Below are positions 3,185 to 26,852 of a stretch of DNA of 26,852 bases, one piece after another (position 1 is the stretch's first letter; each line of letters begins with the position of its first letter). The stretch comes from an uncultured Oscillospiraceae bacterium (GTDB lineage: Bacteria; Bacillota; Clostridia; Oscillospirales; Ruminococcaceae): contig CAYSTR010000001.1 in NCBI GenBank assembly GCA_964433745.1, positions 1-26,852 on the forward strand, read 5' to 3'. The notes under the pieces were generated by a model, which saw only the letters and a program-made list of their open reading frames with translations, was not told where the DNA came from and made no database searches. Made by a program: the position numbers and the translations under genes.

Positions 3185-5305
3185 TTAAGCAATAGCTTCA
3201 AGCTGTTCAATGGTCTCGCATATACGGTTTTGCTCCTGTATCCTTGCTGCTAATAGCGTATCCAGAGAGGAGAGCTGTTCACGCTTTTCTGCTGTTATAT
3301 CCCTTGTAAGCCGTTCGCACATAGCGGCGGTGCGTGTCTTGAAGCTTTCGCCATATTGCAGAATCTCTGAAATAGACCTTGACATGAATCTGTCTATGAC
3401 GGATGCATAAGCTCCTTTAAACACCTCCATATCATAAACAGTATCTACATTTTCCGGGAAACGCTCTTTTAGCATATTAATAGCTTCATCGGCACTGTAC
3501 GACTTATCGGATGGGTTTAACGAAAGGCTTAGATTATAGAGCCTTTCCTCCAACATAGTAAATAATCCTTCCTGTTCCGAGATGAGGCCGTTATGTGACG
3601 TTATCGCAGTGTAGAGAGCATTTTTAAATTCAGACATATCACTAAACACCGAGAAAGCGCGGGTGTGTATGGACCTTGCCAATCCGGACAGATGCTCTAA
3701 ATCTAACACTACTTCATCTGCGCTGAAATAGTAGCTAATCTGCTCGGTCTGTTCGGTTTCATATCTTATTTTCCCCCATGTCCACGGTTTATAGAATACC
3801 GAATCATGTATCAGCTTTACCTGTGATGTTATCTCTGCTTTCGGCAGTTTTTTTGCCTCACGGTATTGTTTTCGCAGTGCATCAAGTTCACTGCGAGCCA
3901 TGTCCAGCTGCTGTTCTAGGGGCTTTAGAAATTCCGATACTGCTTCGGTCACATTTTCTGCCAATCGTGCGATGGGGACAGTAAGCGCACGCCTGTCCCG
4001 CTTTAGTACAGAGGTGTCTAAGGAGTCAAGCTTCAATCTAAGCTCGTCGCATATGTTATTAAGCTGTAATCTGACATCATCCTTAATAAGTATAATAAAT
4101 TCGGAAGCCTTATTTTCCAATAGTGAATCTTTCATCTCGACTAGCTGTGCAAACATTCCGGTTATTTTATCAAACCCCGATATCTCATTTATTAGCTCAT
4201 CGTTTGCGGTATTAACGCTGAATAGAGCATCCATAATAATTTTTTCAGATTCGGTTCTCTCCTCCTCTTTTTTACAGGAGATTCTATCTATCATCGCAGA
4301 TACAAACATTGGTGAGCGGCAGCTGTCCAATGCGGACATGAAAGCGGGCGGGTGCTGCTTTCCCGCCAAGGATGACAGCCGCTTGTCGGCACAATCTGCC
4401 GCGTAGGCACTAAGCCTGCGTTTAACCTGTTTAATCGTCTTAGTTATATCGGCATTTTCATATGACGCATCTATAAGCGCAGAATCAAACTGGCTGGCAA
4501 CAAGACAGAGCCTGCTAACACCCTTACGCGGCAGAAGATCGGTCAGCAGCGACATGTCTGTTTCATCTAGAAAAGCGGTACTCTTGCTTAGAAAAAATGC
4601 GGCATCGCACGTTTCAATAAAGGCGCGTGTCTTTCCCGAACGAAATCCAGCATAATCGTTTAATCCGGGAGTGTCAACCACTACAATATCCTTTAGTACA
4701 GGAAGATTTAGATATATGCTCACCTCTTTGACTAATGGAGCATCGCTTCCCTCATCATCCACATATCGGGACAGCAGCTCAGACAGCTCTGTATAATCCC
4801 CAAAAGGAATAGTCATAAGACAAGCTCGTTCCGTTTCCGCCGGAATATAGCTTGTCTTTTCGATACGCCGCAATATCTGTCCCGCAAGCCGGGATGGTGC
4901 AAACCTCTCCCCTACCTCCGACAAAGCCTTCAGCGATTTAATATCCTCACGCGTAAACAAACTGACCTCCAACCTGTTTTCACAGGCAAAGCATATACGT
5001 GTGGGTACAGCCGTTTTGGGAGAATAATCGCTGGGAAGAACATTTTTGCCTCCGAACAGCAGTCTATTTAAGAAAAAGGACTTTCCCGCTTTCACCTGAC
5101 CTATTACCGCAAGATTAAATCGTCTCTCTATGCCGAAAAAGTCCTCTGTCTTTTCCCTTATTGCCGCCGCCATCAACGAAAGCCGCGCCGGTTCTATGCA
5201 ATCTGCATAGGGTAAGAGAGCCTCACCCGTCTTTGACAGTCGTGATACTATGTCGTTTATCTGTCTTAGAAGCGTGTCAGTCTTTGGAAACAGCACACAG
5301 CTCAT
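3185..5305 (-). CDS. Bacterial dynamin-like GTPase (706 aa)
   Basis: G1 GQVKAGKS, G2 region PKTAVPT, G3 DTPG, G4 variant ASQFD, long helical C-terminal stalk with an aromatic FYKPWTWG tip. Confidence 0.88.
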   Translation of the reverse strand: MSCVLFPKTDTLLRQINDIVSRLSKTGEALLPYADCIEPARLSLMAAAIREKTEDFFGIERRFNLAVIGQVKAGKSFFLNRLLFGGKNVLPSDYSPKTAVPTRICFACENRLEVSLFTREDIKSLKALSEVGERFAPSRLAGQILRRIEKTSYIPAETERACLMTIPFGDYTELSELLSRYVDDEGSDAPLVKEVSIYLNLPVLKDIVVVDTPGLNDYAGFRSGKTRAFIETCDAAFFLSKSTAFLDETDMSLLTDLLPRKGVSRLCLVASQFDSALIDASYENADITKTIKQVKRRLSAYAADCADKRLSSLAGKQHPPAFMSALDSCRSPMFVSAMIDRISCKKEEERTESEKIIMDALFSVNTANDELINEISGFDKITGMFAQLVEMKDSLLENKASEFIILIKDDVRLQLNNICDELRLKLDSLDTSVLKRDRRALTVPIARLAENVTEAVSEFLKPLEQQLDMARSELDALRKQYREAKKLPKAEITSQVKLIHDSVFYKPWTWGKIRYETEQTEQISYYFSADEVVLDLEHLSGLARSIHTRAFSVFSDMSEFKNALYTAITSHNGLISEQEGLFTMLEERLYNLSLSLNPSDKSYSADEAINMLKERFPENVDTVYDMEVFKGAYASVIDRFMSRSISEILQYGESFKTRTAAMCERLTRDITAEKREQLSSLDTLLAARIQEQNRICETIEQLEAIA

Positions 5306-25686: not shown

Positions 25687-26852
25687 TTACAGCGCCGATT
25701 CTAGGTTGCGTTCACATAAGAAGATATAGTGTCTTGCCACATCGTCATACTGGTTTCCGCGAAGCACAACGGCAAACAGATTTTTGGCGTCATAGTAACG
25801 TTTCTGCTCATACAGGGACATTGCTTTTTCAAACGTTACGCGTGTTTCCTCAATCAAGCGTATAATACCTGTTGCACTGGAAGCATAAAAGTCATATAGT
25901 CCAGTCCTTTTGCCGTCATCACTCTCGGATGTTCCGATATAACGGTGAAAATGCTGTTTGTCCTCCAGATTATCGTATGCGTTGTCGGTAACCAGCAGTC
26001 TGCTTGTAAGCTTTCTAAAGTCTTGACAGCGAGTGAGTGTTCCGTCCAGCTCCGGAGATATGAGTGTCGGAACAAACCGCTCCTGCGCACCGCAGATACC
26101 AAAGTACAGGTGAACCCTATCCAAGAGGAATGAGGTATCGATTCTTTCGTTTATGAGACTTTTGGAGTTATATGCATCGGTCTGCGCTATGGCGTAAAGG
26201 GCTGTCTTGACTGCCATGTCCGCATCACGGCATATGAGACGGAGACTGCTCAGTCCTACACTGTCTGTAAGTACAACAGCGCCATTCTCCTCTGCGGCGG
26301 CATGAATTATCGAAAAGTAACGGTTTAAGAGGTTCTCGGCTACCGTAAAGTCACCGGGGTTCTGCCAAATCATTATGTTTGCAACAAGGACACAATAATC
26401 ACCCTCAATCATACTGCCAAGACCCACATCACTTAGATTGCTCTTACCCAAAAACCTAAATATCTGCTGCGGCACAAACCGGTAATAGACATCACCCATC
26501 TGCCTTAGATTATATAGCTGAACATCAATGTCGCGAGCCATCATATTAAACACCCTTGCTATGTCAGCCAGCTCATCATTTGTCGTGACCGAGAGACGCA
26601 CATCGCGGTTTCCTCCGGCAAACTGCTCTATTCCCGCTATAACATCACTTAACGGCCGTAGAATATGTCTAAACAGATAAAGCAGCAGTGAGCTTGCACT
26701 CAATAGGCATAACAGTGAAATCAAGAGGTAGTTTCTAATAAAATCACCTGTCTGGCGGCGTATCTCGGATGTGAATATTCCTGTTTCAAGAAGAAATACC
26801 GTGTTGCCCGAAGAGCTGCCCGCAGGGTTTACGCAGATTATGCGCTCTCCTA
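25687..26852 (-). CDS. Membrane HAMP + class III nucleotidyl-cyclase-like + TPR-like protein (partial; N-terminus outside window)
   Basis: The frame is open from the track's TTG at 26724 to the window edge (hand translation ...GERIICVNPAGSSSGNTVFLLETGIFTSEIRRQTGDFIRNYLLISLL...). It encodes a TM helix, HAMP RPLSDV...DELADIARVFNMM, RFVPQQIF..LGKSN, a cyclase-like core, and a TPR-like FEKAMSLY...YDAKNLF tail. Confidence 0.82.
   Translation of the reverse strand, partial: GERIICVNPAGSSSGNTVFLLETGIFTSEIRRQTGDFIRNYLLISLLCLLSASSLLLYLFRHILRPLSDVIAGIEQFAGGNRDVRLSVTTNDELADIARVFNMMARDIDVQLYNLRQMGDVYYRFVPQQIFRFLGKSNLSDVGLGSMIEGDYCVLVANIMIWQNPGDFTVAENLLNRYFSIIHAAAEENGAVVLTDSVGLSSLRLICRDADMAVKTALYAIAQTDAYNSKSLINERIDTSFLLDRVHLYFGICGAQERFVPTLISPELDGTLTRCQDFRKLTSRLLVTDNAYDNLEDKQHFHRYIGTSESDDGKRTGLYDFYASSATGIIRLIEETRVTFEKAMSLYEQKRYYDAKNLFAVVLRGNQYDDVARHYIFLCERNLESAL

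Follow-up and report, generated by a model that had tools for sequence, protein, structure and literature searches.

The window analysed here is a 26,852-nucleotide stretch of DNA from an uncultured gut bacterium of the Oscillospiraceae. It makes up the 3' two-thirds of a single conserved contractile injection system (CIS) locus of roughly 40 kb, and the system encoded there is a real, conserved and unpublished CIS variant. The window's 19 genes all lie co-directionally on the minus strand, as does every long open reading frame (ORF) of positions 3185-26852, and they comprise a HAMP sensor, a MORN-repeat membrane protein, a complete CIS and two dynamin-like GTPases. The set that runs from the HAMP sensor to the second dynamin is entire and syntenic in four other species, at 25-78% identity. 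What is new here is a CIS-dedicated dynamin clade; besides, the locus defines an envelope and sensor module that is conserved in a CIS lineage common among gut Oscillospiraceae.

To our knowledge, CIS function in Gram-positive, single-membrane bacteria is largely open, the cytoplasmic CIS of Streptomyces and its CisA protein being the only worked examples, and few partners or dedicated roles have been established for bacterial dynamins. The envelope module provides concrete candidates for the anchor, the trigger and the wall-spanning parts of such a machine, and the combination of genes suggests how bacteria with a single membrane dock, trigger and tolerate machines of this kind. More surprising is the dynamin pair, since a monophyletic subfamily is tied to one machine that must breach a membrane, which makes the role of bacterial dynamins directly testable. 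Two of the carriers, Ligaoa zhengdingensis NSJ-31 and Anaerotruncus massiliensis, are cultured gut isolates, bringing the predictions within reach of the bench, and the system may also shape competition in the gut community.

The window is the entire contig C1 of a metagenome-assembled genome (715 contigs, 3.47 Mb, 93% complete). Its end, positions 26737-26852, overlaps positions 1-116 of contig C110 over 116 nt at 94% identity, with mismatches that cluster at the end of C110 and create a stop codon there. Strain heterogeneity probably broke the assembly within the sensor gene. C110 encodes the N-terminal half of the sensor, a membrane protein of 298 aa, a Cis13-family protein of 616 aa and the C-terminal end of a giant wall protein; on C229 lie the genes for a MalT/LuxR regulator, a protein of 277 aa and an AAA+ ATPase of 594 aa, and an open frame in which the giant gene probably starts. 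In relatives, the HAMP gene has a series of genes ahead of it on its strand: the first encodes a MalT/LuxR-type regulator and the next a protein of about 280 aa, the AAA+ ATPase and the giant protein come after these, and proteins of about 612 and then about 300 aa complete the series. The Cis13-family and AAA+ genes are contiguous with the CIS in these relatives. The conserved locus reaches at least seven genes further upstream than the window. The original prediction, made from the window alone, had described the CIS as bracketed by membrane modules; this bracketing is an artefact of the contig end, as the conserved locus runs on upstream past 26852. Likewise, the AAA+ ATPase and the tail-fibre gene that seemed to be missing stand on C229 and, as the Cis13-family gene, on C110, and it was the contig break that made the ATPase and the fibre-position gene appear to be lacking.

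Other parts of that description proved accurate. Besides the one-strand layout, the junctions reported between the accessory genes are exact by ORF coordinates: 42 nt separate the HAMP gene from the MORN gene, 11 nt the MORN gene from the cap gene and 2 nt the Cis12 gene from dynamin 1, and the two dynamin genes overlap by 29 nt. The only strong minus-strand hairpin also lies where the sole clear terminator had been placed, directly 3' of the last dynamin:

3056-3103, minus strand: intrinsic-terminator-like hairpin at the end of the locus, with a 20-bp stem and a T-rich stretch after it

A minus-strand hairpin scan inside the locus returned nothing comparable to this hairpin (3103-3056).

Association and ancestry of the dynamin pair

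The two dynamin genes occupy the 3' edge of the locus:

5277-6758, minus strand: dynamin-like GTPase 1, 493 aa (Pfam Dynamin_N, E 2.8e-8), starting 2 nt past the Cis12 stop
3185-5305, minus strand: dynamin-like GTPase 2, 706 aa (Pfam Dynamin_N, E 1.4e-13), overlapping dynamin 1 by 29 nt

A pattern scan for Cis12-like proteins across 185,579 species genomes returned 19 loci in addition to the window's own. The dynamin pair stands beside the CIS in 14 of these 20 species-level loci, in two orientations and with differing flanking genes:

8 loci: pair co-directional, directly after Cis12
6 loci: pair convergent, within about 6 kb
2 loci: pair on another contig (one a contig break; in the other, that of Ligaoa zhengdingensis, the contig with the CIS continues without the pair)
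3 loci: no dynamin homologue in the assembly
1 locus: contig too short to tell

A reverse census that started from dynamin 2 found a CIS adjoining 10 of 11 loci. In an even sample of the family comprising 401 genomes, the dynamin occurs in 11 and a CIS of the close clade in 15, with both present in 9 genomes, or 10 if a copy cut by a contig end is counted; the dynamin is absent from all 23 genomes of the sample that have a more distant CIS. Fisher's test gives p = 4e-13 by genome and 1e-6 by genus, values that are overstated by the kinship of the relatives. The idea of a housekeeping dynamin was rejected on the same counts, the gene being present in only 11 of the 401 family genomes.

The pair travels with the CIS and not with the neighbourhood: the genes on its other side differ, an Rnf operon following the pair in three relatives and TetR-ABC genes in the window. 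Metagenomic contigs added one further co-directional and one convergent case, and in Anaerotruncus massiliensis the pair holds a third position, just upstream of the regulator gene. In the phylogenetic tree, all CIS-linked dynamins form one clade (support 100/99), with the non-CIS homologues outside it. Because the CIS-linked dynamins are monophyletic, the tree points to a single recruitment of the pair into one CIS clade, followed by co-inheritance. Since then, the pair has kept its place at the 3' end of the locus while inversions occurred and the flanking genes changed.

Distant homologues of dynamin 2 (about 29-30% identity) occur elsewhere, one in a housekeeping block and two in five-gene clusters with several dynamins. 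These two clusters, L068 and L083, hold three dynamin-family genes each; the L083 cluster adds genes for a colicin DNase, an FtsK/DUF87 ATPase and a WYL regulator, and the contig of the L068 cluster also has ParA and transposase genes. A multi-dynamin cluster of this type is a candidate conflict system of its own. At the CIS-linked dynamins of L067, L081 and L082, an adjoining gene pair encodes a response regulator (LytTR-type in L081 and L082, Trans_reg_C-type in L067) and an HATPase_c_5 protein; this two-component pair, absent from the window, could provide dedicated regulation of the dynamins.

At the protein level, dynamin 1 of the window carries E-L-P-G at the G3 motif, where six relatives have D-x-P-G, and keeps the P-loop and N-K-C-D. 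It is 493 aa long, against 607-629 aa in its orthologues, and is without a middle segment of about 100 aa that is found in four of the six aligned relatives. Dynamin 1 of the six relatives is a canonical GTPase, and the Glu variant is specific to the window's genome and not a trait of the family, since the relatives keep D-x-P-G. In dynamin 2, the P-loop (G1) and D-T-P-G are invariant in five sequences, and an equally invariant aromatic stretch, F-Y-K-P-W-T-W-G-K, in the C-terminal helical part is a candidate paddle. A transmembrane (TM) scan found no TM helix in either dynamin. The pair of the window is the most divergent of the clade, with an end branch of 2.01 against a median of 0.38 in the dynamin 2 tree.

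The sole sequence matches of dynamin 2 in the PDB are Nostoc BDLP (2j68) and the Campylobacter jejuni DLP (5owv), both in the GTPase domain with about 50-70 residues aligned. Two adjacent Dynamin_N genes recall the paired dynamins known as DynA in B. subtilis, DLP1/DLP2 in C. jejuni, BDLP in Nostoc and LeoABC/Eleos in E. coli, but the similarity of these to dynamin 2 lies within the GTPase domain only and the LeoA model is matched in part. The literature searched does not connect any of the four with a contractile injection system. The LeoA matches in PADLOC cover about 100 of 559 positions (E 1.8e-7) and about 30 positions (E 1.8e-3), and PADLOC gave no match to LeoBC; membership in the Eleos (LeoA/LeoBC) system was rejected on these grounds.

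A functional link between the dynamins and the CIS is, in our judgement, likely. The competing account, which we regard as unlikely, has the pair serve on its own in membrane surveillance or anti-phage defence, in the manner of DynA or Eleos/LeoABC; it would stand beside the CIS only through the clustering of conflict systems and inheritance within the family. The LeoA matches that would suit it are weak and partial, far from full length. Distant homologues do occur in multi-dynamin clusters (FtsK/DUF87, colicin DNase, WYL) or on mobile-element-like contigs, yet those linked to a CIS are monophyletic. The pair is missing from some CIS genomes and unlinked in Ligaoa, but the subfamily is rare (11/401) and 9-10 of those genomes carry this CIS clade, with an adjacency that is kept in two orientations, in the third position of Anaerotruncus and amid different flanks. 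Several dynamin loci are convergent with intergenic gaps, and a LytTR two-component pair often adjoins the dynamins, whereas in the window dynamin 1 begins 2 nt past the Cis12 stop, leaving no space for a promoter.

The envelope and sensor module

The envelope module consists of the MORN protein, the four-TM HAMP sensor, the Cis13-family protein and the AAA+ ATPase; within the clade, it adds the two-TM 298-aa protein and the giant wall protein (PASTA, CHB_HEX_C and Fn3_assoc domains). Two of its genes lie in the window:

23773-25644, minus strand: bitopic (single-pass) MORN-repeat membrane protein (Pfam MORN, E 1.3e-12; one helix by TM scan; seven orthologues aligned)
25687-26852 (ORF 25687-26850), minus strand: C-terminal 387 aa of the sensor, its 5' end cut by the contig end (Pfam HAMP, E 6.6e-10)

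All 13 clade genomes searched contain the MORN protein, the three without dynamins among them, and the MORN gene stands directly before the cap gene in nine of the ten loci where both were mapped; in the remaining one, a sister locus, about 5.6 kb lie between the two. The TM scan and the alignment of seven orthologues give a conserved N-tail of about 75 aa, one TM helix and the repeats after it. The positive-inside rule and the composition of the linker suggest a short cytoplasmic tail with the bulk of the protein outside. The window's copy contains a 19-residue insertion (25127-25229) that repeats the neighbouring D-I-E-N-G-M-C-T-G and is without counterpart in six orthologues, in agreement with the local duplication or inversion scar that had been suspected in this gene.

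The sensor fragment runs from the last TM helix through HAMP and a cyclase-fold domain to a helical tail. Full-length sensors in relatives, of about 890 aa, have four predicted TM helices and two outside domains, and wherever the upstream region was examined, in eight clade loci, the sensor gene stands before the MORN gene. The cyclase fold was revealed by fold search alone: a sequence profile of the C-terminal domain against the PDB returned nothing, no cyclase included, while the best 50 Foldseek matches of an AF2 model in the PDB are all class III adenylyl/guanylyl cyclases (best E 2.2e-11, probability 1.00, target-normalised TM-score 0.6-0.76 for domain-only targets). The model has a mean pLDDT of 69, with 70-90 across most of the cyclase-fold domain. 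There is no Pfam PF00211 match at E <= 0.01; in seven orthologues, the first metal-binding Asp is absent and the Asn/Arg pair is not conserved, with the motifs placed by eye and not by structural superposition. One Asp, D196, is invariant in the seven. Because the PF00211 match and the catalytic motifs are missing, the domain is probably non-catalytic and would serve as a signalling or docking output. The earlier label of "pseudo-cyclase" is thereby upheld at the level of fold and motif. HAMP class III cyclase receptors, such as those of the mycobacterial Rv1625c/Rv3645 type, share the order of TM segment, HAMP and cyclase-homology fold, but differ from the present sensor in the PF00211 match, the first metal Asp and the Asn/Arg pair, none of which it has.

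The remaining members of the module lie upstream. The 616-aa protein of C110 was named through NCBIfam, whose CIS13_fam model it matches over the N-terminal third (E 8e-20); its AF2 model (mean pLDDT 50.6) was too poor for a fold search, and a protein atlas held only "hypothetical protein" clusters for it. A complex prediction of MORN residues 1-100 with the Cis13-like protein and the cap scored 0.00, which speaks neither for nor against binding. In relatives, the giant protein measures 2,400-3,350 aa and contains CHB_HEX_C_1 and Fn3_assoc repeats; a 3,351-aa copy has a hydrophobic segment at both ends, and the C-terminus in the window's genome, on C110, adds a PASTA domain. The protein of about 300 aa (298 aa on C110) has two hydrophobic segments, predicted as two TM helices.

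We also examined three more distant CIS loci of the same family, with 23-58% identity to the window's CIS and hosted by one complete genome, one genome of 0.8 Mb and one other. Two of these sister loci are reordered, reading Cis11a, Cis11b, Cis12, Cis13-like, MORN, cap, PAAR, in one of them the sensor, and AAA+, while the third keeps the window's order of sensor, MORN and cap, with no Cis13-like or AAA+ gene within the stretch examined. The sensor is present in two of the three and was not seen in the examined stretch of the other. A gene set that is kept through reshuffling is a classical sign of a functional unit. The module is inherited with the CIS and survives the shuffling of gene order; thus it belongs to the system, and we hold it to be very probable that it is functionally part of the CIS. 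Homologous CIS loci accordingly do carry the accessory genes on which the original prediction had staked its claim: MORN, sensor and dynamins all recur at them.

A distant version of the CIS also occurs in three genera of the family with genomes of 0.7-1.0 Mb (G099, G129, G149, G229, G269, G328, G347, G358 and G405; e.g. loci L079-L080), a large investment for genomes of that size. MORN and HAMP genes are seen in one of these small genomes, G229, and the Cis12-like match of G347 holds three in-frame TAG codons.

Proposed mode of action and competing explanations

Among solved structures, the closest sheath is that of a haloarchaeal CIS resembling the type VI secretion system (T6SS; 9ezm, E 6e-114), followed by Streptomyces 8bky (1.6e-94), 9qgl (1e-48), the Anabaena tCIS (5.7e-48) and Afp/PVC (about 1e-45). 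The only solid Cis11 match is to Streptomyces (9gtp_1K, E 1.1e-14). By sequence, the closest solved relatives are CIS that act from inside the cell at the cytoplasmic membrane, namely the haloarchaeal and Streptomyces systems.

In 2024, Zachs et al. described the CIS of Halogeometricum borinquense as bound to the cytoplasmic membrane and responsible for contact-dependent killing (PMC11566945; 9EZM), and placed its nearest Cis11 relatives in Bacillota. It shares with the present locus an Afp/PVC-type core with Cis11, Cis12 and Cis13, as well as a conserved membrane protein upstream of the core. The anchor proposed there, Hbor_38620, is a six-TM protein with some 150 residues in its cytoplasmic domain, whereas here we find a one-TM MORN protein, a four-TM HAMP/pseudo-cyclase sensor, a two-TM protein and a giant wall protein. 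Dynamins or GTPases are mentioned zero times in PMC11566945, the haloarchaeal host is an S-layer archaeon and ours a bacterium with a peptidoglycan wall, and membrane binding, shown for the haloarchaeal CIS, is here only inferred.

In 2025, Casu et al. showed that firing of the cytoplasmic CIS of Streptomyces coelicolor needs CisA, a single-pass protein with its N-terminus inside and its C-terminus outside (PMC12237407). The Streptomyces wedge of two Cis11 and one Cis12 (PMC12237407) resembles the two Cis11-type genes and the Cis12 gene of the window. CisA, whose outside domain is like a substrate-binding protein, is encoded after the baseplate genes, a position held here by the dynamins; the MORN protein is single-pass like CisA, but has MORN repeats and is encoded before the cap gene, a comparison made by architecture only. 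The Streptomyces CIS is without the sensor, the giant wall protein and the dynamins. Extracellular CIS (eCIS) of the Afp/PVC type (Serratia Afp, Photorhabdus PVC, AlgoCIS) have the same families, Pvc16_N, CIS_tube, Cis5, Cis12, Cis13, gp25, DUF4280 and AAA+ ATPase; they differ in the sheath (E about 1e-45 to 1e-49), in a Cis13 match limited to the N-terminal part, and in being without both the envelope and sensor module and the dynamins. Our literature search gave no link of dynamins or MORN proteins to any CIS, in line with the original remark that no characterised CIS was known to have this gene set.

The explanation we favour, and hold on balance to be the probable one, is a docked CIS with an envelope module and with dynamins that act on the producer's membrane around firing. 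The envelope module would dock the particle at the wall and the single membrane, and two cytoplasmic parts are candidates for the contact surfaces, namely the MORN protein's conserved N-tail and the pseudo-cyclase of the sensor. The module would also relay an outside signal, such as cell contact or wall stress, to the baseplate, with the sensor passing this signal via HAMP to its non-catalytic cyclase-fold domain. The dynamin pair would work on the producer's own cytoplasmic membrane around firing, and its most likely role would be to tether the membrane and reseal the lesion left by a tube that is driven through it without a TssJLM-type channel. This role is suggested because DynA offers a precedent at pores and phage damage and because no TssJLM-type channel is encoded; in PMC8844932 and PMC12998192, B. 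subtilis DynA is described as clustering at pore and phage damage. The specific resealing role is tentative and, taken by itself, may well not hold. A bolder reading, which we consider doubtful, is that the CIS fires outward through its own membrane in a T6SS-like manner from a dock of MORN protein, pseudo-cyclase and Cis13-like protein, with the dynamins replacing the channel and tethering and resealing the puncture after each shot, or sealing punctures made by sister cells. If true, this would be the first case of an injection system with its own membrane-repair module, and a bacterial dynamin pair would for the first time have an assigned cellular partner.

The prediction of a membrane-linked CIS thus keeps the recurrence of its accessory genes, the cyclase fold and the membrane-bound or cytoplasmic relatives, and loses the bracketing. 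As for the dynamins as part of the CIS, adjacency in 14/20 loci and a CIS-specific clade agree with it, but the pair is a frequent clade-specific accessory and not universal, missing from three CIS genomes and unlinked in Ligaoa.

Several observations weigh against the docked CIS with its dynamins. There is no dynamin in 5 of the 15 close-clade CIS genomes of the family sample, where such genomes fall into two genera, nor in 3 of the 19 determinable loci, and the CIS therefore works without dynamins. The cultured Ligaoa has its pair on another contig. In relatives, 100-200 nt lie between Cis12 and dynamin 1 and could hold promoters of their own; with six loci convergent, co-transcription is therefore not general. 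All carriers belong to one family, and shared descent inflates the counts. The long branch and the Asp-to-Glu change in G3 of dynamin 1 may mean an altered or relaxed function in the window's genome. The sequence occurs in DNA gut metagenome runs only, with no RNA run listed. Finally, an eCIS_core (PF13699) protein of 547-895 aa follows Cis12 in three dynamin-less loci:

L039, 11117-14950: eCIS_core, with an AAA+ ATPase after it
L041, 11131-13152: eCIS_core
L047, 11121-13808: eCIS_core

Such effector-type genes in sister loci fit an extracellular as well as a cytoplasmic mode. In the window's genome, C347 carries an eCIS_core fragment and C169 a second AAA+ ATPase of the CIS type.

An extracellular CIS, in which particles with eCIS_core-tagged effectors are released, the dynamins vesiculate or rupture the membrane and the envelope module times the release, seems to us quite unlikely. 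A vesiculation role has been proposed for LeoABC and toxin-bearing vesicles. The core genes are indeed of the Afp/PVC type (Pvc16_N, CIS_tube, Cis12, Cis13), but the closest sheaths are membrane-bound or cytoplasmic (E 6e-114 and 1.6e-94, against about 1e-45 for Afp/PVC). A Cis13-family gene is present at the fibre position, yet its match covers the N-terminal, baseplate-attachment part only. The eCIS_core genes after Cis12 in sister loci, and the one in the window's genome, would supply the effectors, and the locus has no lysis cassette, so that another exit route would be needed; a single-pass adaptor-like protein and a transmembrane sensor nevertheless fit docking better than release.

Least probable of all is a Streptomyces-like mode. 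In it, the HAMP protein would sense envelope stress and the CIS would fire within the producer, leading to regulated death; the MORN protein would act as CisA, and the dynamins would set the threshold by delaying membrane collapse. The second-closest sheath and the only solid Cis11 match (E 1.1e-14) do come from Streptomyces, and DynA delays lysis after phage infection according to PMC8844932, but external sensing is suggested by the giant surface protein and by the sensor's large outside domains, and the eCIS_core genes of effector type found in sister loci point to delivery to another cell. CisA is also single-pass, with a cytoplasmic N-region and an outside C-terminal domain (PMC12237407), whereas the cytoplasmic part of the MORN protein measures about 75 aa against 285 aa in CisA, the two being compared by architecture only.

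Structural genes and flank

Between the MORN gene and dynamin 1, the window carries the structural genes of the CIS:

23186-23761, minus strand: cap, Pvc16/Cis16 (Pfam Pvc16_N, E 3.6e-27)
22393-23094, minus strand: conserved 233-aa protein without family match; syntenic homologues in relatives at 27-41% identity
22037-22423, minus strand: PAAR-like spike tip, DUF4280 (Pfam, E 1e-29)
20232-21959, minus strand: contractile sheath, Cis2 (Pfam Phage_sheath_1 and 1C)
19718-20179, minus strand: inner tube, Cis1 (Pfam Phage_T4_gp19, E 1.8e-43)
19275-19649, minus strand: tail-assembly-chaperone-like protein (PHROG 508, tail assembly chaperone, E 1.5e-5); relatives 64-71% identical
18609-19058, minus strand: second tube protein or tube adaptor, Cis5-like (Pfam gp19, E 4.6e-9; NCBIfam CIS5_fam, E 2.9e-6)
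16022-18586, minus strand: 854-aa protein in the tape-measure position, without family match; tblastn matches to relatives at the termini only
15227-16021, minus strand: tube initiator, Cis7-like, CIS_tube/LysM (Pfam CIS_tube, E 1.6e-29)
14094-15203, minus strand: gpD/gp27-like baseplate hub (Pfam Phage_GPD, E 1.2e-7; NCBIfam VgrG-related, E 2.7e-13)
13321-14097, minus strand: gp5/VgrG-type spike OB domain, Cis8 (Pfam Phage_base_V, E 6.3e-18)
12899-13309, minus strand: gp25-like sheath initiator, Cis9 (Pfam GPW_gp25, E 9.1e-22)
9998-12853, minus strand: large baseplate-J-like wedge, Cis11-type, 951 aa (TIGR02243, E 7.4e-17; Streptomyces chain 9gtp_1K, E 1.1e-14)
7883-9994, minus strand: second baseplate-J-like wedge, Cis11-type, 703 aa (TIGR02243, E 5.1e-49, above the curated cut-off)
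6761-7879, minus strand: Cis12-family baseplate protein (NCBIfam CIS12_fam, E 2.4e-20; TIGR02242, E 2.2e-14)

The structural gene set is complete. Sheath, tube, cap, gp25, spike with PAAR-like tip and Cis11/Cis12 occur together, as in the Afp/PVC/CIS (non-T6SS-i) superfamily. No capsid genes are present on the window, C110 or C229, and a prophage tail was ruled out by this absence and by the CIS-specific families. The 233-aa, 854-aa, 298-aa and 277-aa proteins have no family in PHROGs, Pfam or PADLOC. The 854-aa protein (16022-18586) sits in the part of the locus with the lowest G+C content, 39-40%. CIS effectors derived from tape-measure proteins are described in PMC13277306.

In windows of 1 kb, the G+C content of the CIS locus ranges from 39 to 50%, against 46% for the genome, and the idea that the CIS is a foreign island was discarded, the atypical part being the flank, at 35%. 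This flank, at positions 1-3000 past the terminator, holds TetR, ABC, FtsX and AraC-type genes and, unlike the CIS, is foreign-looking in composition.

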